A program made the translations under genes and the position numbers. A model generated the notes under the pieces. The model did not search any database. It was not told where the DNA came from and was given only the letters and a program-made list of their open reading frames with translations. DNA of 59,489 nt, filler included, from Squatina squatina (lineage: Eukaryota): the NCBI GenBank assembly GCA_031763465.1. It is 3 parts of 3 records of this genome, joined end to end, with 100 filler letters (N's around TTAATTAATTAA, not from the genome) between each part and the next. Parts side by side here need not be neighbours in the genome. Positions count along the whole stretch, not along the records: positions 16,779 to 41,771 come from JARFOE010000016.1; 2 more parts are not named here. The stretch is one strand, 5' to 3'. The stretch's first letter is position 1; every line of letters begins with the position of its first letter. Shown piece by piece: positions 17,133 to 41,258 of the stretch.

Positions 17133-17432
<300 letters not shown>

Positions 17433-19871: not shown

Positions 19872-20141
19872 TCACTGCACAACGGCGCTGCGGGGAGCCC
19901 TTTCAGCGCGCGGCAGGTCATGCGTTCGGCGGTTCCGCCCCTTCCTGATCTCCTGCAGGTGCTTCCACTTAGTCTGCAGGTTGCGGGCCGACGTCCGCTT
20001 GTGCTTGGGCTGCTTGTTCCTCCGCCTCCACACCTGCGCGCAGATCTCGTCCACCGTCTTCAGGCTGGGGTGGTCGACGAGCTGCAGGAAGTCGCGGTAC
20101 CACACCTTCTGGTTGGGAAAGGTCCCCGGCGGCTCCTTGCG
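19872..20141 (-). CDS. SEMA3B: Class-3 semaphorin last exon, basic C-terminal tail (SEMA3B-like); 5' end lost in gap
   Basis: KVWYRDFLQLVDHP...KWKHLQEIRKGRNRRTHDLPRAERAPRSAVVQ*. WYRDFLQLV and PRAERxPRSA favour SEMA3B over SEMA3A; the KGRNRR basic/furin motif is present. Confidence 0.8.
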   Translation of the reverse strand, partial: RKEPPGTFPNQKVWYRDFLQLVDHPSLKTVDEICAQVWRRRNKQPKHKRTSARNLQTKWKHLQEIRKGRNRRTHDLPRAERAPRSAVVQ

Positions 20142-27217: not shown

Positions 27218-27375
27218 GTCAAAATCCTGGAACTCCCTCCCTAACAGCACTGTGGGAGCATCTTCACCACACGGACTGCAGCGGTTCAAGAAGGTGGCTC
27301 ATCATCACCTTCTCAAGGGCAACTGGGGATGGGCAATAAATGCTGGCCTTACCAGCGATGTCCACATCCCCATGC
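27218..27375 (+). mobile_element. LINE 3' end (same family as 2328-2785)
   Basis: SKSWNSLPNSTVGASSPHGLQRFKKVAHHHLLKGN, then gatgggcaataaatgctggcc tail; WNxLP is typical of CR1/L2-group ORF2 C-termini. Confidence 0.75.
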
Positions 27376-27499: not shown

Positions 27500-27703
27500 C
27501 TTGTTGTAGTAATACCTAAGTGCCCGGCTCAGCTTGTCATAGTTCATGTTGGTTTTATTCTTGCGCATGCCCCACAGCCGCGCCACCTCCTCTGCGTTAC
27601 GTAACTTGAACTCCCCGTCCTTGGACGTCCAGCAGATGAGGTCGTTCTTGTTCTCGTCCAAGAGCTGCCGCAGAAATTGCCACAATGTTATCGAGTTGTC
27701 CAT
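27500..27703 (-). CDS. ETS-domain ternary complex factor (ELK1/ELK3/ELK4 subfamily), first coding exon; paralog identity unresolved
   Basis: tcctgcag acceptor at 27711-27712, ATG at 27703; [68 protein letters not shown]|gtgaga. An N-terminal ETS domain with an intron after YYYxK is typical of TCFs. Confidence 0.92.
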
Positions 27704-28019
27704 CGCTGAGCTGCAGGAGAGAACCAATCGGTGAAACCAGAGATTCCATATGAGCTGTAAGTAAAAACAAAAATTACATCTGCGTCTACAAAACCTTGCT
27801 TTCTGTTTTAACTATAAACACACAAAATCCAAAAATTGTAAAATAAAAAATGACATTAATGTGGGATTTGAATTGTGCCTGTGCACCATGATCCAAATAT
27901 TCCCATTAGCTAACCCCACTTCAACTGAAGACTACATTTGATCTTGACTCTTTGTGTAACACTGCAGAAGATTGGCCAGTACCCTTAACATTTTTATTTT
28001 AAAGCTATTATTGATTTTT

Positions 28020-28930: not shown

Positions 28931-29273
28931 TTCTTTGTATTCACAGTTTCTTGCTGTATTTAGGTATGCTAGTTTCAAATTATTTAAAATTTCAGAGATG
29001 GTCCTGTACCTATAATGCTCATCCATTGGACTTTCACGCAAGAGGTCTGAGTTTGGAAAAGTTTTAATTGACATTCACACACTAGCTTCCCATAGGTAGC
29101 AAGTTTCCCAGTCTCTCCNNNNNNNNNNNNNNNNNNNNNNNNNNNNNNNNNNNNNNNNNNNNNNNNNNNNNNNNNNNNNNNNNNNNNNNNNNNNNNNNNN
29201 NNNNNNNNNNNNNNNNNNATTTTCTCAATATAATTTTCCCTTTGCACAATAAATTAAACTAGCTCCCTCTTAC

Positions 29274-29356
29274 CCTTGCTTCGATGTATTCAATCCTTCG
29301 TTCTAGTGCGGTTAGTTTTTCATTCAGTGTTGCGAGTCGGGAACGGCAGGACATGT
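29274..29356 (-). CDS. BRK1: BRICK1 (HSPC300, WAVE complex subunit) exon 2
   Basis: ttttcacag|(D)[27 protein letters not shown]|gtaag, matching vertebrate BRK1 as recalled; lies downstream of FANCD2 on the same strand, as in human. Confidence 0.97.
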
Positions 29357-29537
29357 CTGTGAAAATGAAAATACCATACTTTACCTTTCAGTGTACATGT
29401 AGTGTCCTTTTGTAGGCACAATGCTCCAAATTAACACCAACACTAAACCCAAGTTGTCCATATTTTATGCCAGATACACAGGCAGCACCCGAGTAAACTT
29501 GTTGAAGGTTAAGGCCAGTGGCCATGAGGGCTCAGTA

Positions 29538-30162: not shown

Positions 30163-30237
30163 CCTGTGCTTCTTGAAGCTGTAGTCGAGGAGTGGCATGC
30201 CTTGCTTAAGAAAAGATTCAATGAAAAGGCGTCCATG
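30163..30237 (-). CDS. FANCD2: FANCD2 exon (C-terminal region)
   Basis: gatacag|[25 protein letters not shown]|gtatg (human [25 protein letters not shown]). Confidence 0.93.
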
Positions 30238-31343
30238 CTGTATCACAAAAATATAACCATACATTAGGCTAAAACACTGTAGCAATTCCACCATTGTAGA
30301 ACTAATTTCTATAAAAACTATACAGTATGTGAAAAATCAAATAATGTATTTTGATGTTATTTATGGCAGACTGACAGTGACGTACTTTAGTGTTCCAGTC
30401 TGTCGTGTACAAATAGTAGTTAGGACAACATTTCAATTCCATAATCCCCACCATCATTCAAAGTCTTGGTCACACACATTGAGGGAAAAACAGCAACTAC
30501 AGGCTAGGCATTATCCTCGGGAAGGTGTTATAGGAAGACAGAGCATAGTCACTGCATTCTGCCCTTTCATGCCTTCTAAAAACAGGTTCAAGACCAGTAC
30601 CGAGACATCACAGAACACGCTGCTTGTCCACCTTTTGTTTCAGACAACGGGCAAAATTACCAGATGATAAGATTCGAGTATTTTACTTTTTTTCCCCCAA
30701 TTTTTTTTTAACCTATAGGCAGTGTGGGACATTATTGAGAGGCACTAGTAGGTAAACATCCCAACTCCATTTTGATGGGAATGAAGATTTACCAGTGGTA
30801 CCAACAACTGCAGAAGTGTCAGCAGTCTTACCTTTGGAAAAGAAGGTTATGGGTTTGAGCCAGCACCAAGGCATAATCTCAGCTGATACTCCAGAACAGT
30901 ACTGAGAGTTTGGGTGTTGTCAGGTAAGATCTTCAGTTGAGACCTTGCTCAGATTGAGGTGAAAAGGGTAATTGGAAGATTACAGAATGGATCTTTTGGA
31001 AGGATATGATCAAGCGGAACAAGTTGGTTGAAAATGGGAAACTATGTGTATGGGGGAGGGGAGAGAAGAAAGGGTAAAACATCTCATCACCATTATTGGT
31101 CAATCCTCTCGAGTGTTCCATTAAATAAAAAAGGGGAAAAATCCTAACCATTTCCATAGGCTATTTTCAACAGCCTCACTGGCACTATTGTGAACTCTGC
31201 AAAGAGATACCATAGCCACAGTTATACTACTGCAAACTGTAGAACTTCTCTTCTTGTGAGCTTTTTGATTACCATAACAATCACAGAGATCAAAATATCA
31301 TTGGATGTGAGCTTGTCATCTGCTTCATTTTTAGAGGCATATA

Positions 31344-31728
31344 GAAAGAACTTGCATTTATACAGCACCTTTGATGACCTCAGGACAGCCCAAAGCGCTT
31401 TACAGCCAATTAAGTACCTTTGAAGTGCAGGCGTCATTGTAATGTAGGAAACAGCCAATCTGCGCACAGCAAGCTCCCACGAGTAGCAATCAGATAATGA
31501 CCAGGTAACCTGTTTTAGTAATGTGGATTGAAAGATAAATATTGGCCAGGACACCGGGGCTAACTCCCCCTGCTCTTCTTCAAATAGTGCCATGGGATCT
31601 TTTACATCCACAAGAGAGCAGAAGGGGCTTCGTTTTAACGTCTCGTCTGAAAGACGGCACCTGACAGTGCAGCACTCCCTCAGTACTGCACTAGAGTCTC
31701 AGCCTAGATTTTTGTGCTCAAGTCTCTA
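31344..31728 (-). mobile_element. Deu-domain SINE
   Basis: Reverse complement of the 10940-11355 family along its whole length. Confidence 0.8.
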
Positions 31729-31915
31729 GTGGCGGACAGCAGGGAGACCCCTCTATAGTTTCCGCAATCGGACTTGTCTCCTTTCTTGAAGATGGTCACG
31801 ATTATGGCATCGCTGAGACCTCCTGGCATGCTCTCCCCTTCCCAAATGAGGGAGATGATGTCATGGATTCGTGCCATGAATGCCTCACTGCCATATTTCG
31901 GCAGGCATCGTCCGC
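31729..31915 (-). mobile_element. RTE-like LINE RT N-terminal fragment
   Basis: ARIHDIISLIWEGESMPGGLSDAIIVTIFKKGDKSDCGNYRGVSLLSA; IVxIxKKGD...CxNYRGxSLLS is typical of RTE-clade RTs. Confidence 0.75.
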
Positions 31916-32891
31916 ATGCCTGATTCAAACGCCTCCGAGGAGGGCAAAGGAAACACTACAAGNNNNNNNNNNNNNNNNNNNNNNNNNNNNNNNNNNNNNN
32001 NNNNNNNNNNNNNNNNNNNNNNNNNNNNNNNNNNNNNNNNNNNNNNNNNNNNNNNNNNNNNNTGTTCAGAATCTTTTTGCTGTAATGAAAGAAGGAAAAG
32101 GAAGAATTGCATTTCTATAGCGCCTTTCACGACCACCAGACGTCTCAAAGTGCTTTACAGTCGATGAGGTTTTATTTTTAAGTTTAGTGACTGTTGTCAT
32201 GTAGGAATGTTAAGATATAACTTTGTTTTTTCCACTTTCTTCCATTTTTAAAGCTACTTTTAATGCTATCTAATATTTTCTTCCCTTCTTGCTATATTAA
32301 GTAATTCAACAACTGAGAGATGCAGGTAACCCACGCCCAGACTGCCACGTGTGTTGGCTGCCTTCCACTTCTGGTTTTCTGGCCTCCCCAGGAATAAATG
32401 CCTCACTTTGCCAGGAACTATCTTCTACCTCCCTCCCTCCCTCAGCAACAGCATGACTGAGATGAGGAAATACTAAGATGAACCTATGTTATCTCAATGA
32501 CAAATGGCATTAGTACAGCAATGTGTTTTGGCACTGAGCCACCTTTAATTGAAACAGCCAATGTGCAATGTAGAACAAGTCAAATTCAAACGGTTCATTC
32601 GTTCTAATGAAACAGATGAGTGACTACAGTATTTCAGTCTTGCTCATGTATAAAGTAAAAATAGAACAAGGGACATTTGGAAAAGATTTGCAAAGCTGCA
32701 CCCAAGGGTACAGAATATTGCGTGTATATTGTGAACAGTTTATGGCTGCGGTCTAATCTTAAAGATTACAGCATGTGAACTACCTCATATTGTACTTCCA
32801 CACCCAGAGAACATAATTTTTCATAATAAAAAAAAATCAATAATATACTTCCTATTATCATGAGCTTTTCCAGTTTCAATGACATATGTAC

Positions 32892-33008
32892 CTTTAGGAA
32901 GAGCATTTTCTTGGAAGTAGTTGCTACCAGCATGTAGTCCAATTTGCGAGACAGGTCCTCCAGAAGAAACACTAGTTCCGCTGACCCCAGCTGTACAACC
33001 TCAGTAAC
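32892..33008 (-). CDS. FANCD2: FANCD2 exon
   Basis: cttgtag|VTEVVQLGSAELVFLLEDLSRKLDYMLVATTSKKMLFLK|gtac; 117 nt. Confidence 0.93.
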
Positions 33009-33330
33009 CTACAAGACAAGACAGGATGATCCTCAATATTTACATTGGTCTACACGTCAGCTTATGATTAGCAGCCATTTTTGGTCAATTTAACTCGCTA
33101 CTTTTGCAAATAAATTTATACTATTACTATGGTTAAATTGACAATGTTACATTACACAGCAAATTATCTCAGAATTGAACTGTATAGATCATGATTATAA
33201 ACTTGCTATGTAGCAGTATATTACGGTTAAACCAAAAAATGGAATAAAGTGGACAGAATCTTTTTAACTGCCTTATGAATTAGCAAGATAGCTTTTTTGA
33301 CAACAATGTAAGGACTATCCACACACTGAC

Positions 33331-33471
33331 CTTGGCGTGTAGCTCAGTGTCCAGTAGGGACTTGGTTACCAGGCCACAATGTAGGACAAAAAATACATCT
33401 GTATCCAGCTCCCTAAAGTAGGCTCTGTAACTGGGCAAGTTAACAAAGACTTTCCCTTCTTCAGTGTTTTC
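33331..33471 (-). CDS. FANCD2: FANCD2 exon
   Basis: ttctgcag|ENTEEGKVFVNLPSYRAYFRELDTDVFFVLHCGLVTKSLLDTELHAK|gtcagt; 141 nt. Confidence 0.93.
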
Positions 33472-33637
33472 CTGCAGAATACATGATGATATTGCATGAA
33501 ACACCACCTAGATATGTTAGAATATACACACACACACACAAACACTTACTTCCTAAAAGTGAACTATGAATCATCATTGATTAATTTTCACTGTTTTATA
33601 TTTATATTAGATCAGTGATATATAAAGCACTGCCCAC

Positions 33638-33834
33638 CAATGTTCCCACTAAGGTGTGCGCACTCACTGGCTTTTACATTGTAGACACCGACCATGCACA
33701 GAAATTTAAAGGGACAGCGCATTAAAAGAAACAGGCCCCGCAGAACAAAGCGCAGCTTACAGGGAGCATTGTATATGATTATTCTCTGATNNNNNNNNNN
33801 GAAACAGACAACGCGCAGCTCACAGGGACCATTG
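33638..33834. mobile_element. hAT-type MITE with TIRs and an 8-bp target-site duplication
   Basis: Left TIR caatgttccc (33638-33647), right TIR gggaccattg (33825-33834); flanks ctgcccac / ctggccac; extra right-end copy at ~33749-33770. Confidence 0.6.
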
Positions 33835-34794
33835 CTGGCCACCAACATCCACCATGTTGACTGCCCTATAAAGCTACTCTTTCCCCCGTCCCAAAAGAGA
33901 ACATAACCACTCCAGGCGATAACAATTATATTAAAATAAAACATATGGGAGTCATTTCAAGGAAGTGCACTGATCTTGGGTACATGTGCACTGAAGCAGC
34001 AATATATTGCACCACGGAATGGCGGGACAAAAATTTACACCTGCAAACCCTCACCTGCTAATTTGCCCAACTGAGAAGAGGAGGTGCTGAGTTAGGCACA
34101 TGGAGAAACCAACTGGGAAAGTGGGATAAAGAGAGAGAGACAGAGACGAGGGGGGGTCGGGGGATCACTGCTTCACAGTAGCAGGGTACCAGTGAAGCAA
34201 AATAATTTTCAAGCAGAGTTGGATGGGTACTTGAGGATGAGCAACTTACAGGGTTACAGACAAAAAGTGAGGATGAGATTAAGCACGACTGCTCTTTCAT
34301 AGAGCAAGTACAGGCATGATGGGCCAAATGTGCTGTTAGTTTTTATGATTCTAATGGTGAGAGTCCACGTGGATGTTGTTACTTGGATGGATTAGAATGA
34401 GCAAAGTCTTTAAATCTACACTGATTTCAAAGCCTGCATTTGTTGATCATGGGAACACTTAACAGTATTCAGAATTTACTGAAACTATTTACACAAGGTA
34501 CACACAAAAGACGTAATTGCTGAACACATTAGATATTTATTCACTGGTGTTTAATTGAGTAGGTACAGCAATCTTGAAGTTGCATGACAGTATATATATT
34601 TTTTTCAAATTGCAAGTATTTTATAGCTCTTAAAGGAGCCATTGCTAAACAAATTGAGAATAAAATCTCTTCATCTTTGAAAGGGGCTGTATATTTTTGA
34701 TTTATTTCTATGACTGGAGCTCCAGGGTACTCTTGACCCAGCTGCCTACCTTCAAAGCAGCAGCTTCAGAAGTTGGCTGATTGCATGTATCCCT

Positions 34795-34964
34795 GGACAA
34801 GTAATCCAGAAAACGTGAGTTCAAATCTCACTGTGGCAGTTTGAGAATTTGAATTCAGATTTTGGAAATCTGGAAATAAAAAGCTGGCATCATGAAGCTG
34901 TCAGATTGTCATACAAACCCAACTGGTTCACGGATGTCCGTGAGGGATGGAAACCTGCGTCCTT
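34795..34964 (+). repeat. tRNA-derived SINE-like fragment
   Basis: B-box-like gagttcaaatctc followed by gaatttgaattca...aaatctggaaataaaaagctg...aactggttcac; truncated by gap. Confidence 0.5.
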
Positions 34965-35371
34965 NNNNNNNNNNNNNNNNNNNNNNNNNNNNNNNNNNNN
35001 NNNNNNNNNNNNNNNNNNNNNNNNNNNNNNNNNNNNNNNNNNNNNNNNNNNNNNNNNNNNNNNNNNNNNNNNNNNNNNNNNNNNNNNNNNNNNNNNNNNN
35101 NNNNNNNNNNNNNNNNNNNNNNNNNNNNNNNNNNNNNNNNNNNNNNNNNNNNNNNNNNNNNNNNNNNNNNNNNNNNNNNNNNNNNNNNNNNNNNNNNNNN
35201 NNNNNNNNNNNNNNNNNNNNNNNNNNNNNNNNNNNNNNNNNNNNNNNNNNNNNNNNNNNNNNNNNNNNNNNNNNNNNNNNNNNNNNNNNNNNNNNNNNNN
35301 NNNNNNNNNNNNNNNNNNNNNNNNNNNNNNNNNNNNNNNNNNNNNNNNNNNNNNGCCCTTGTTAACTGTAC

Positions 35372-35490
35372 CTTCCCTTGTATACTCTCAGCTTGCACTT
35401 GACTTTCTTCTGCAGGCTCCTCAAGCTGAGAGCTGTCTGTAGAGGAGTTCTTGCTACCCTCAGATTTCTGCATCTTCTTTCCCTTTTGAT
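35372..35490 (-). CDS. FANCD2: FANCD2 exon (low-complexity linker)
   Basis: tttttccttgaag|(D)QKGKKMQKSEGSKNSSTDSSQLEEPAEESQVQAESIQGK|gtac; phase 1 to 0 fits the flanking exons; corresponds to human RKQKTDGSKTSSSD. Confidence 0.82.
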
Positions 35491-36246
35491 CTTCAAGGAA
35501 AAATACAAATAAAAACAAAAAATTAACTCGAACTTACTGATATTAGACTCTTATACCCAGGAGTTGAATTATAAATTTATTGGGACTTCCTGCTCATTTT
35601 ATCCCCCTCTTACTTTGCTGACGACATTGGCTTCAGTTCCAAAGGCACCAGCCACTGGTACCCTGGCCAAGTGGCGATTCCTTATCTGTGAGCACTGGCA
35701 AGCCATTCAACTGCGATGGGGAATCACAGCAGAGTTCGATCATTTCCCAAACAACATCTGAAAATGCATTCTTTCCCATAAGAGTCATTCAATAGTGGTC
35801 AGCAGCAGGAACCCTGGCTGCTTTTCCTCTCCCTTGTGCTGAGATCACCCAACTCACTGTGGCTGGTGATCGGAGCTTCGGATCCTGCTGCTGTATAGAG
35901 TTCACGGGATAGACTGGCAGACCCTGCAGGCGAACTCACTTTTCATTTGAAAATTGAGCAGATACTTCAGAGCCAACTTAACCCCTCTCCCCAAACATGT
36001 TATTGGTCACAGAAGATGGGGAGGAAGAAAAACAGAGACTGGGTCAACTGGAGTCACAATGGTACAGAATGCCATTGCCCTCTTGGCCACTGATGGTGCA
36101 TGATCTGAACAGAAAAACTCGGCTGGGTAAGGGAGGCCATTTAGCCCACCACAGCTGCACTGGCTCTCCAAGAACTTTCTGTTTAGTCCCATTTCCCTGC
36201 CCTCTCCCCAAACTACCAGAATTTTTCTTTTTCAAACTTTAATCAC

Positions 36247-36348
36247 CTTTCTTTCCTTTCTTAGCTGGTGCTGCAGGAGCTACGGTTGGAGGAACCTCAG
36301 TGATCTCTGAATCAAAGTTTGCCAGCGGAGGGACATATCCAGGGGTTG
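36247..36348 (-). CDS. FANCD2: FANCD2 exon
   Basis: catttcag|(A)TPGYVPPLANFDSEITEVPPTVAPAAPAKKGKK|gtgat (human TPDYVPPLGNFD). Confidence 0.9.
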
Positions 36349-37269
36349 CTGAAATGTTAAAGAAAATTGCTGTAGGTTAGAACCTTCACAGTGAACACTA
36401 AGGACAGCGGTAGAATTATAAGCACCAAAATAAAAAATAAGCACAGTTACAATGAGGAAAAAGAAGAGCTTCTACTGGTATCATTTTTAGATTAACTTTG
36501 GAGGGCCACGTGCCCTTTTAACTCAGAGGCGTNNNNNNNNNNNNNNNNNNNNNNNNNNNNNNNNNNNNNNNNNNNNNNNNNNNNNNNNNNNNNNNNNNNN
36601 NNNNNNNNNNNNNNNNNNNNNNNNNNNNNNNNCCCACCATTTTCAAAATTCAGCAAAATGATTTGTTGAAACTCCACAACACTCCCCTCCTCCTCTTTAA
36701 ATGACCTAAGCAGTGCCTGTGTGAGGGAAAGCCCCCCCCATTTAAGTATAGATGTGGGCTGATAGGTAAGTGGAAGCAGTGAAGTCAATTGAGGAATTCA
36801 ACAGCTAAAAGAAACTAAGAAAATCAGTGCTAAGTATGGGACCATTAGCGCTGAAATTAGCACATTTTTTAAAGCTGTTTGTAAGATTTTTTCTTAGTGT
36901 TGAAACGCCAGGATTTAACAAAAATTCCTAAGAGCTGAACTTTGCACCTCCCTATTCATCCCTTAGCACCAAAAACTCAGGGCAATGAAATTGGGAGAAA
37001 CAATTGTTTATTTCTTTCTTTTATTCTTTTAAACCTGCTGAGTCAGACGAGAGTGCGACCGAGTGAGCCATGGGTGACACTTGTACAAAGCCTTGTACGC
37101 ATTATTGTCGTGCCACAGCTCAGTGCAACAAAGCTACAATTAGATTAAAATTCAGGAACAAAACATTTAGCATAAGGAGCTGTTTGTATTTTAAACGGAA
37201 TATTCTGAACCGCTTTTGTGGGAAATGATGTGATGACTTGTGACATCCGTAGTAAATCCCATGAATCTC

Positions 37270-37680
37270 TACAGTCGCTGGGATTGTTCTCCTTAGAGAT
37301 TTAAGAGAGGTTTAATAGAGGTGTTCACAATTATGAAGGATGGATTAAATTAGGAGAAATTGTTTCAACTGGTGGGCGGGTCAATAAACATAAGACACAG
37401 GTTTAAGATAATTGACAAAATAAACAGAGGTGACATGAGGAGAATTTTTTTTAAGCAACGAGTTATTATGATCTGTAACACGTTGCCTGAAAGGGCGATG
37501 GAAGCAGATTCAATTTTAACTTCCAAAAAGAGAATTGGATAAATAATTGAAGAGGAAAAATCTGCAGAGCCACGGGGGAAGGATGGGGGGAGTGGGGCTA
37601 ATTTGATTGCTCTTCCAAAGAGCCGGTGCAGGTATGATGGGCCAAATGGCCTCTCTCTGTGCTGTAAGATTCTATGATTT
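37270..37680 (+). mobile_element. CR1/HER1-type LINE 3' end
   Basis: HRFKII...RRIFFKQRVIMICNTLPERAMEADS plus a gggccaaatggcctctctctgtgctgta tail. Confidence 0.78.
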
Positions 37681-38139
37681 AATGGTTCTATCCTGAATGT
37701 ATTGTGCCTGAGTCCTGCAAGATTACATAAAAAGTCACAGAGGCAGTGAAAAATACTGGATTCTTGGCAGATCTGAACAACAATAAGTAACTCATTGCAA
37801 TAAATCACTTCTCCATGAATTAATAGTGACTCAGCTCAACAACCGTTCTGTCGTACCCAACTGGACAAGGTTTTGCTTAGTTTTTCCCTTTCAAAAAGAA
37901 CTCTTCATTAACCAATGGTTAAGATATTTATTTTCATGGCACATATAGTGTTGATACCAAACTTTATGTAGAGAATTAAATGCCAGCTTCAAAGCTCAAG
38001 AATCACAAAGGGCAGCAATGACTTCAAAAGCCAATGATGAGTAAAGTGCAAAATCTGGCAGAACTTTTTCACACAAAGGCTAATAGAGTTGTGGGATGAG
38101 TTACCAGGAAAGGACATTAAATCAGACTGTATATTAGAA

Positions 38140-38510
38140 AGAAAATAAAGTCTTGCACTTCCATAATGTATTTCATGACCTCAGGATGTCACAAAGCACT
38201 TTACAGCCAATGAAGTAGTGTTGAAGTGTAGTCACTGTTATAATGTAGGAAACACGGCAGCCAATTTGCACACAGCAAGATCTCACAAATAGCAATGTGA
38301 TAATGACCAGATAATCTGTTTTAGCGATGCTGATTAAGCAATAAATACTGGCCCAGGTCACTGTGCCATGGGATTTTTTACGTCCACCCGCGATCTCAAG
38401 ACAGGACATCAGTTTAACGTCTCATCTGACAGTGCAGCACCTCCTCAGCACTGCACTGGAGTGACTGCCTAGATTTTTGTGCTCAAGTCTCTGGGATTTG
38501 AATCCACAAC
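38140..38510 (-). mobile_element. Deu-domain SINE with internal deletion
   Basis: Same family; lacks the gaagagcagggg segment. Confidence 0.78.
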
Positions 38511-38575
38511 TAGACACTGCAGGCAGGTAAAATAGACAAACATGCACAGCCACAATAGCATAAACCATTCCGAAC

Positions 38576-38684
38576 CTGCTATGCACTTCTCCAGCAACAC
38601 CTGCAGCTGTGTAATGTTCTGCAACCGGAGGAGTACCTTTCCCTTCATCTCAGTATCCCGCTGCTTACAGAACGCATTCACTAC
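38576..38684 (-). CDS. FANCD2: FANCD2 exon
   Basis: ccttccag|VVNAFCKQRDTEMKGKVLLRLQNITQLQVLLEKCIA|gttcg; 109 nt. Confidence 0.93.
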
Positions 38685-39802
38685 CTGGAAGGCAGACAGA
38701 AAAATAAATCACTAGTGACAACCCAAATGATAGCACTGTCTTTCTGTACACATTATTGGTCAGCTACACACACTGCAACTGTCTTTTGCATATTTTGACT
38801 TTGTAATTCAAGGAGTCAGATCAGCAACTAAATCTGTACTTATCCATCACAGAATCAACATTTAGAGCTTAAAAACAGTTTTCCCATCCACTACATACTG
38901 ACACCAGACCAGCTCATTAATGCAATTTGATGACTATCCCAGTATATAGTGCATGACATACCTGGAGTGCAGTGAGGTTGAGGTGTGGGATTTCCTGCAC
39001 CAACAGCACATAAAAGGCAATTACAATATAGAATGGCCTTGTAGAGGGAGGGAAGGAGACCAGTGTCCAAATAAAAATTGTCCTCTTTGAACCAACAGTT
39101 AAAGAAAAAGCATCCATGGTAGCCTTATTCTAAGTTTAGGGCTGTGCAAGAGATTTTAAAACACTAGCCTTCCCTGCCATCTGGATACACAATGTGTAGG
39201 CTCTTGAGTACTGGCATTGCTTTGGGCCTTCATTGGAGGATGTAGAATGCACGGGGTGAATGGTCGGCCTCCCTGACTGATAATACGGGAGTGGTGTCTA
39301 ATGTGCTTCAGTGTAATTGGTGCTGACCATCTCATTATCATCCTCATTGTGTGGAGGGAAAGTGCTACTGCAGAGAAAGAGAGCCAAAATCTCAGGCTAA
39401 CTATATTCTGTTAATCCCATACACCATTTAGTGGCAGAAATAACAGTGGTGCTGAGGACAATTATAGCCCCTGAACAACTGCCTTGGCTCAGTTCATTTA
39501 ACAGCCCAGATCAAGGATCGNNNNNNNNNNNNNNNNNNNNNNNNNNNNNNNNNNNNNNNNNNNNNNNNNNNNNNNNNNNNNNNNNNNNNNNNNNNNNNNN
39601 NNNNNNNNNNNNNNNNNNNNCAGAGTGGCTACTTATGGATTCCACTGTCTACTCATTTCCAGGTTTAGAGGGTTACATCTTTGCAAAAAATCATTCTCAT
39701 TGGAAAAAAAAACACTCTTCCACTCTTTCAACAGCCTTGCTAAAGCATTTGCCCCCCCAGAGTCATTAAAGACTTAATGAGATGAGATGTACGTTACAAT
39801 AC

Positions 39803-39912
39803 CTGTCATAAGCCATGCAGCCCACCATCATGACTGCCCCAATGATCCCAATGCGCTTGTATTTGGATATTGTACTAGACAGCTGTTTCCTGACAACAAT
39901 GTGCATGTCATC
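39803..39912 (-). CDS. FANCD2: FANCD2 exon containing the monoubiquitinated lysine (human K561 equivalent)
   Basis: ttccgcag|[36 protein letters not shown](R)|gtat; the DDMHxVxRKQL motif carries the ubiquitination site. Confidence 0.95.
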
Positions 39913-40124
39913 CTGCGGAATTGGACAAGGCAACTGTTAGCAATCCTTCTAGTTAACATGAACATTTCCGCAAGGGCTAGTTCTTGTAGGTAAAGAAAAT
40001 ACTTGTAAATGCATACACAAATGCAGGTTTTAATCAGACCATCCATCCGAACTTGCAGAAGGGCTCTAAAGCACAGGCATGAGAAACCCATGGACTTTTG
40101 AGACTTTCAGATTCTCTCCCTCAC

Positions 40125-40232
40125 CTGAATGTGACTGCCCTCCTGTCCTCTGCTAAAAGCCAGTGTGCTGAGTACAAAAAACAGCTTCCTAATCTGTTGG
40201 GGAGACAAGTTTTCCATGTAATCCAAGATACC
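40125..40232 (-). CDS. FANCD2: FANCD2 exon
   Basis: ttttgcag|[36 protein letters not shown]|gtgag; 108 nt. Confidence 0.95.
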
Positions 40233-40560
40233 CTGCAAAATAAAAAAACAAACTTCCTAAAGATGCAATAAAGATTGCCATGAGAACCATTTTAAAGCAC
40301 TGCTAAGTTTCTCTACATGCCACAGAAATATTACCACTCCAAACCCCGCCACATATATGATTCGACCCATTTCAGGAACAAGCCGGGGGTTAGTAGCAGA
40401 ATCAGAAGGGCGGACGGATGTCCAGCCCCTCAACTGAATCACCACAGACCAGGGATTTAACCTGGGACTTACCTCATCTGGACAGCTGAGTATCAAGACG
40501 AGGGTCCGTCACCACCTTCTCAAGGCAACCAGGAAATTGAGCAACTGCCGCCCACATCCC

Positions 40561-40725
40561 GAGGATCAGTGCTGGGGCCTCAGCTATTTACAATCTGTAT
40601 TAATGACCTGGACAAAGGAGCCGAGTGTAACGTATCCAAGTTTGCTGACGATACAAAGCTAGGTGGGACATTAAGCTGTGAGGAGGACACAAAGAGATCT
40701 AGATAGACTAAGTGAGTGGGCAGTA
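40561..40725 (+). mobile_element. CR1-type LINE RT fragment
   Basis: GSVLGPQLFTICINDLDKGAECNVSKFADDTKLGG. Confidence 0.85.
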
Positions 40726-41152
40726 AACATAGAAACATAGAAAATAGGTGCAGGAGTAGGCCATTAGGCCCTTCGAGCCTGCACCGCCATTCAATATGAN
40801 NNNNNNNNNNNNNNNNNNNNNNNNNNNNNNNNNNNNNNNNNNNNNNNNNNNNNNNNNNNNNNNNNNNNNNNNNNNNNNNNNNNNNNNNNNNNNNNNNNNA
40901 CTCAAAGCTTCTTGTTGTGAACCAGAGAAGGAAGGAGGTCGAATGCCAACAATTGTCACAGCTCTTAGTATTGGCTTGGTTCCACAATGACAGGTCTGTG
41001 AAAGGCAAACAGTGTCCATATGGTTCACAGGTGCCCACAACACACAAAACCAAAATAGTGTCATACCAAACCTTAGTACTTCATTGCACCCACCCATTTA
41101 ATATTTGACCTTGAAAACTTTGTCAACATAAAGAAATGACATTTGAGATCAC

Positions 41153-41258
41153 CTTAATCCAGGCTTCAGCTGTCGCTTTCCGAAACCGCACAGCAGCTTT
41201 AATGACATCGAACATAATCGCAACGCAGTCGTGACCGCTGTTCTGATTCACTGAGGTC
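41153..41258 (-). CDS. FANCD2: FANCD2 exon
   Basis: ttttatgtttag|xTSVNQNSGHDCVAIMFDVIKAAVRFRKATAEAWIK|gtgat (human [29 protein letters not shown]). Confidence 0.9.

Follow-up and report, generated by a model that had tools for sequence, protein, structure and literature searches.

This locus raises the question of whether a single ETS-domain exon in Squatina squatina belongs to one of the three known ELK genes or to a fourth. The DNA that we analyzed (here, the window) is a stretch of 59,489 nucleotides, filler included, from assembly GCA_031763465.1; its second part (16779-41771) holds the exon and equals scaffold C16 with an offset of 697,807. An earlier note, made from the sequence alone, had read the exon as a divergent member of the ELK/TCF family and proposed that cartilaginous fish retain a ternary complex factor missing in human. 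The TCF subfamily consists of three genes, according to the available passages of a 2021 review (PMC8151852). We found no description of a fourth member in the literature searched, nor any ELK term in the elephant shark genome supplement; TCF-evolution and shark or coelacanth genome studies outside the reach of that search may mention one. On the evidence below, we consider it very probable that the exon belongs to a fourth ELK (TCF) gene that is separate from ELK1, ELK3, and ELK4, lies in linkage with BRK1 and FANCD2, was likely born in the two early vertebrate genome doublings (2R), and is predicted to encode an ELK1-type, MAP-kinase-switched SRF partner.

An ELK-type exon and its clade

The first coding exon of the new gene occupies 27500..27710 on the minus strand: 7 nt precede an ATG at 27703, from which 68 stop-free codons (27703-27500) encode most of the ETS domain, the final codon ending at 27500. 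A pyrimidine tract and AG set the start at 27710, the coordinate given by the earlier note, and a GT donor follows 27500; with intact AG/GT ends, no stop, and a Pfam Ets match of E 1.2e-25, its description of a spliceable 68-codon ETS exon is borne out. The nearest solved structures are the ETS domains of ELK4 and ELK1 (104-107 bits), while other ETS classes (ERG, FLI1, ETV, and ETS1) score ≤81 bits, which marks the domain as TCF/ELK type. Over the matching stretch, the ELK4 ETS domain has 69 residues and that of ELK1 has 70, compared to 68 in the exon. Sub-cutoff Pfam matches in the window (LEF-8, Sri, DUF1289, scorpion-toxin, and portal models) were dismissed as chance.

Upstream, 17 in-frame codons (27754-27704, minus strand) encode the same N-terminal extension that the isoform X2 model of horn shark carries, and a second AG acceptor precedes them. 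Judging from the sequence, this AG is likely a conserved alternative 3′ splice site, use of which would extend the exon over 27711..27754 (minus strand). The intron downstream of the exon contains, outside the coding sequence, a high-copy interspersed repeat (27218..27370; unstranded) of the short interspersed type, abundant in all four contig sets compared. No splice joint for the exon was found in those four sets, where the signal was swamped by this repeat.

The earlier note had singled out four motifs as unlike ELK1, ELK3, and ELK4 (FLRQLL, KLRNAEE, WGMRKN, and YYYNK). All four are present in the exon, and part of the claim stands. Among 373 fetched proteins with an LWQFL-to-YYYxK span, the one-residue-shorter spacing occurs in 24, every one a member of the new clade; R at position 12 and the 68-codon exon are common to the shark, coelacanth, lungfish, and caecilian copies, and KLRNAEE is found only in chondrichthyan members of the clade (18 proteins). 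The other two motifs were rejected as clade markers, because WGMRKN also occurs in lungfish ELK1 and elephant ELK4 and YYYNK is private to the S. squatina genome (0 of 16 orthologues). At codon 67 (27503-27505, minus strand) the exon reads AAC (N), a place at which all 16 of 16 orthologues carry D or E; the corresponding residues are D69 in ELK1 and V68 in SAP-1, at a site that we take to tune DNA binding. D67N may reflect either variation in this species or an erroneous base. Agreement with orthologues extends to 67 of the 68 exon residues.

A protein search with the exon (best 120 of 681 matches listed) returned at least 14 records from 13 cartilaginous fish species at 96 to 99% identity, all named "Elk-1-like" except for one "Elk-1" and one unnamed record. 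Beyond chondrichthyans, identity among the matches listed was 87% for coelacanth, 81% for a lungfish-type match (a protein cluster containing Protopterus "Elk-1-like"), and 79% for "Elk-3-like" of the caecilian Rhinatrema. A second search, with the full-length Mustelus protein as the query (best 120 of 1532 matches listed), brought out the separate ELK1 copies described below.

For phylogenetic analysis, 43 proteins were hand-chosen from about 410 fetched, covering each group and lineage and including four cyclostome and three invertebrate rows. The LG+C20 tree of these proteins recovers four clades, namely the new clade (100/97), ELK1 (99/99), ELK3 (100/99), and ELK4 (100/98), and pairs the new clade with ELK1 (99/99) and ELK3 with ELK4 (94/94); the S. 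squatina exon falls among the elasmobranch members of the new clade. In AU tests (22 rows, LG+G4, with the alternative groups named after the first tree was seen), five of five alternatives were rejected, at p values from 1.2e-5 to 0.005: a shark-specific duplicate (p = 0.0025), a lobe-finned-specific duplicate (p = 1.2e-5), nesting of the new clade with ELK3 (p = 0.001) or ELK4 (p = 0.0009), and a grouping of the shark copies with all ELK1 that leaves out the lobe-finned copies (p = 0.005). With four clades in the trees and AU p ≤0.005, the peptide lies outside the ELK1, ELK3, and ELK4 clades, as the earlier note had supposed.

The deeper branching is sensitive to sampling. In the 22-row LG+G4 tree, the new clade plus ELK1 receives only 55/9 and ELK1 itself 88/89; Heptranchias ELK1, misplaced inside ELK1 in the 43-protein tree, is basal there. 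When the data were restricted to 151 conserved columns, support was 95/89 for the new clade and 82/49 for ELK1, one cyclostome pair grouped with ELK1 (86/85), the root stayed open, and a cyclostome pair placed within ELK3 broke up that clade. For jawed vertebrates alone, the same 151 columns split the new clade plus ELK1 from ELK3 plus ELK4 at 100/98. The clade and its unrooted pairing are therefore firm; the root is less so, and the rooted sisterhood of the new clade and ELK1 is unstable. Both of these clades contain shark and lobe-finned members, and the duplication that separated them is older than the split between cartilaginous and bony vertebrates. Two ELK lineages occur in lampreys and hagfish: the C terminus of one resembles that of ELK1 and the new gene, and the other leans toward ELK3/ELK4, a pattern that a shared first doubling would produce.

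Linkage to FANCD2 and the 2R paralogon

The neighborhood of the exon agrees with what the earlier note had described. On one side lie a BRK1 exon (29271..29357, minus strand), with 29 of 29 residues identical to human BRICK1 residues 40-68, and a partial FANCD2 gene (30163..41254, minus strand) represented by nine exon matches in order; one further FANCD2 exon was identified in the flanking scaffold sequence. The same stretch holds a class-3 semaphorin exon encoding a PSI domain, identified by sequence match (17217..17381, plus strand), which we take to be SEMA3G, and what is probably the final exon of another class-3 semaphorin gene, read from the sequence (19875..20141, minus strand), presumably SEMA3B; a solved-structure search with the latter gave no match. 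Within a FANCD2 intron, a weak, sub-cutoff reverse-transcriptase match (40461-40703, plus strand) is probably a retroelement remnant. The note's caveat that this linkage crosses 100-N gaps is right: the ELK exon sits alone on a 1.9-kb piece between such gaps, one gap from BRK1 and seven from the semaphorin exon.

Linkage to FANCD2 holds in other chondrichthyan genomes. In eight of eight comparable species (Heterodontus, Heptranchias, Mustelus, Scyliorhinus canicula, S. torazame, Stegostoma, Narcine, and Rhincodon), the new gene and FANCD2 are on contigs of identical length; not counted are Pristiophorus, for which no length was given; Carcharodon and Chiloscyllium punctatum, each lacking a row that names the partner gene; one S. 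torazame scaffold record of older date; and a Rhincodon FANCD2-like partial record on a contig of 50 kb. RefSeq number gaps between the two genes in seven species are 2, 2, 3, 3, 25, 29, and 245 (≤3 in four of seven and ≤29 in six of seven), and this accession order suggests that the new gene adjoins FANCD2. The available parts of the little skate genome paper (PMC10115646) list promoter bins on a single chromosome, Leri_16C, for Sema3g (28.76 Mb), "Elk1.1" (29.37 Mb), Brk1 (29.41 Mb), and Fancd2 (29.50 Mb). This order is that of the window; about 130 kb separate "Elk1.1" from the promoter bin of Fancd2, and judging by its position, skate "Elk1.1" is the new gene. The genes lie much closer together in the window than they do in skate. 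The S. squatina scaffold has therefore probably been compressed, and a reference may have supplied its order. Such guidance may well explain the placement in S. squatina without making it wrong.

As for the human counterparts of these blocks, we take ELK1 to be on X, ELK3 on 12, ELK4 on 1q, and FANCD2 on 3p. In the portions of the skate paper covered, linkage group E comprises 1-alpha (LER16, chicken 12), 2-beta (LER24, chicken 26), and 2-alpha (LER19+22), 1-beta was not found in skate, and Elk4 and Cdk18 are on Leri_24C (PMC10115646). Lagman et al. (2013) described a paralogon on human 1, 3, 7/12, and X that includes ATP2B, CDK16-18, and SEMA3; ELK is not listed in the passages of that paper covered here (PMC3826523). 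The new gene is on a paralogous block, matching human 3p and chicken 12, that no other ELK uses. Scaffold C16 also carries an ATP2B exon about 2.0 Mb and a TIMP exon about 2.5 Mb from the ELK exon; the former scores 160 bits to ATP2B2 versus 143 to ATP2B1, the only two compared. ATP2B exons occur on the scaffolds of both the new gene (C16) and ELK4 (C56), and ATP2B and TIMP exons share C222.

A fourth ELK would have arisen together with ELK1, ELK3, and ELK4 in 2R. The new gene would be the 1-alpha copy and ELK1 its 1-beta sister, with ELK3 and ELK4 as the 2-alpha/2-beta pair; the split between the new clade plus ELK1 and ELK3 plus ELK4 fits this 2R pattern. Losses in ray-finned fish, in frogs and salamanders, and in amniotes would have come later, and the new gene is likely the 2R copy that humans lost. 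In bichirs, a gene named KLF15 has an accession adjacent to that of ELK4; one model of 844 residues seems to be a fusion of these two genes, and the KLF15-named gene is possibly another paralogue retained from this paralogon.

An origin outside 2R must also be weighed: if ELK1 had been copied long ago in the jawed-vertebrate stem, by a single-gene or segmental duplication, and the copy had moved to a 3p-like chromosome, that copy would likewise be closest to ELK1, as the new gene is in the 43-protein tree, and timing alone cannot part 2R from another stem duplication. Moreover, we know of no paralogues of BRK1 or FANCD2 beside ELK1, ELK3, or ELK4. We nevertheless regard this origin as improbable, given that the pairing of the new gene with ELK1 and of ELK3 with ELK4 matches 1-alpha/1-beta versus 2-alpha/2-beta, and that the new gene fills exactly the vacant block of the four-block paralogon, as published in the parts of the two papers available (PMC10115646 and PMC3826523).

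Co-occurrence with ELK1 and distribution

Sevengill shark (Heptranchias), coelacanth (Latimeria), lungfish (Protopterus), and Rhinatrema each have the new gene and a separate, ordinary ELK1. In the three species with surely comparable records, the two genes are on different contigs (new gene versus ELK1, in Mb: Heptranchias, 65.7 versus 3.88; Protopterus, 544 versus 2,000; Rhinatrema, 487 versus 840). An alternative is that the gene is no more than ELK1 in its chondrichthyan form, as the database names Elk-1 and Elk-1-like imply, or else a shark-specific ELK1 duplicate; this reading gains something from our finding no ELK1 in S. squatina and only one chondrichthyan ELK1 among the matches listed. 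It strikes us as very improbable in the face of both genes coexisting in four species, the AU results for a shark-specific duplication (0.0025) and for sharks with ELK1 to the exclusion of lobe-finned copies (0.005), and the 68-codon exon and R12 that shark, coelacanth, lungfish, and caecilian copies have in common.

Among the matches listed for Heptranchias are the new gene, ELK1, and ELK3, and ELK4 is not among them; ELK4 was seen in sawfish, stingrays, and S. squatina. Chondrichthyans as a group hold all four clades, the new gene, ELK1, ELK3, and ELK4, in line with the earlier suggestion of more than three TCF genes, and the maximum seen in any single genome is three of the four. The sole chondrichthyan ELK1 among the matches listed, that of Heptranchias, is compositionally odd. 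It has repeated glutamate-rich blocks and lies on a 3.88-Mb scaffold, which fits a small, poorly assembled beta chromosome.

Members of the new clade were seen in a holocephalan, sharks, batoids, coelacanth, lungfish, and one caecilian. The proposal that cartilaginous fish retain the missing fourth TCF is thus upheld as to retention, but the gene is not confined to them. For ray-finned fish, frogs, salamanders, two other caecilians, and amniotes, only ELK1, ELK3, and ELK4 appeared among the matches listed (best 120, 120, and 150); because these are ranked best-match lists, we can only infer the losses.

Other pieces of the gene appear to be present in the S. squatina assembly. An open piece running from the B-box to the D-site on unplaced contig C1108252 scores best with the new clade (717 versus 174), as does an open C-domain exon on unplaced contig C683942 (179 versus 160). 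By sequence similarity, the exon and these two contigs would belong to one gene. Neither its last exon nor the 5′ part of exon 2 was found in the S. squatina assembly searched. ELK3 is on C120 and ELK4 on C363331/C56, so that S. squatina shows three of the four genes. ELK1 was not found in this assembly, a result that tells us nothing either way, since the sequence is broken into 1.15 million contigs and the first exons of ELK3 and ELK4 were not found there either. That the S. squatina exon is a pseudogene fragment, or stands beside BRK1 and FANCD2 merely through reference-guided scaffolding, might be read from its isolation on a 1.9-kb piece between 100-N gaps and from the private D67N, but we give this hardly any credence in view of the 67 of 68 agreeing residues, the intact splice sites, the further open exons on unplaced contigs, and the same gene order in the independent skate assembly, as far as its published account is available.

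We offer a broader scenario tentatively, as a conjecture that is more doubtful than probable: jawed vertebrates ancestrally had four TCFs, and the fourth, on the normally better-kept alpha chromosome, persisted as far as the living tetrapod Rhinatrema and disappeared in three or more independent events. It may be the sole ELK1-type gene in some sharks and skates, in which case "Elk1" there and mammalian ELK1 would be reciprocally kept sisters.

Predicted function and relation to known TCF genes

The B-box, the D-site (a basic-LxL docking motif), and FQFP, scored as consensus patterns, are present in 16 of 16 full-length orthologues, together with six to nine S/T-P sites. The PLNLS motif of ELK3, which we take to be its CtBP site, occurs in none of the 16 orthologues versus four of four ELK3 proteins. 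The orthologue B-box aligns to the end of SAP-1 chain 1hbx_G (entry 1hbx). The lysine matching ELK1 K35, a mono-ubiquitination site according to the available passages of the 2021 review (PMC8151852), is kept as K33. The same passages describe TCFs as forming a ternary complex with SRF on serum response elements and being activated by MAPK phosphorylation (PMC8151852). Retention of the B-box, D-site, FQFP, and S/T-P sites makes the new protein a likely SRF partner of the ELK1 type. By analogy with ELK1, it would bind GGAA/ETS sites adjoining SRF and recruit SRF, and ERK phosphorylation would then switch on immediate-early genes. A promoter anchor of skate "Elk1.1" in the H3K4me3 loop table, within the material covered, suggests an active promoter in the embryonic pectoral fin.

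A fourth TCF completes the 2R quartet and provides a clean marker for the 3p/X/12/1q paralogon. It also exposes hidden paralogy. What annotations of skate, elephant shark, and other sharks call "Elk1" is a different gene from ELK1, with consequences for orthology tables and for comparisons of MAPK-SRF signaling in developing fins and limbs. Because the gene survives in coelacanth, lungfish, and one caecilian, the repeated loss of a signaling transcription factor can be tested directly. The gene adds a family member rather than a new mechanism, and ohnologues retained in sharks are a known class.

That class provides one comparison. Little skate has 68 differentially retained ohnologues, such as wnt6b and cspg5, and ELK is not named in the main text as covered (PMC10115646); the new gene may be among the 68. 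Retained ohnologues of cartilaginous fish are likewise 2R paralogues kept in chondrichthyans and lobe-finned fish and absent from model species. RefSeq models of the same gene go under three names, "Elk-1-like" in sharks, rays, coelacanth, and lungfish, "Elk-1" in elephant shark, and "Elk-3-like" in Rhinatrema; the labels are automatic and carry no statement of a fourth paralogue. The gene models are known already, under misleading names.

Among characterized TCFs, ELK1 is the nearest clade and resembles the new protein in its N-terminal ETS domain, intron after YYYxK, near-identical B-box, D-site, HFWSTLSP, and FQFP C-domain. It differs in having a 69-codon exon (70 in the placental mammal) compared to 68 codons, in lacking R12, and in length, the new protein being shorter (about 370-410 amino acids). 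ELK3 (NET) and ELK4 (SAP-1) share the domain order and 77 to 81% identity over the exon; however, they fall on the other side of the 100/98 split, whereas the new gene has a B-box of the ELK1 type and no PLNLS.
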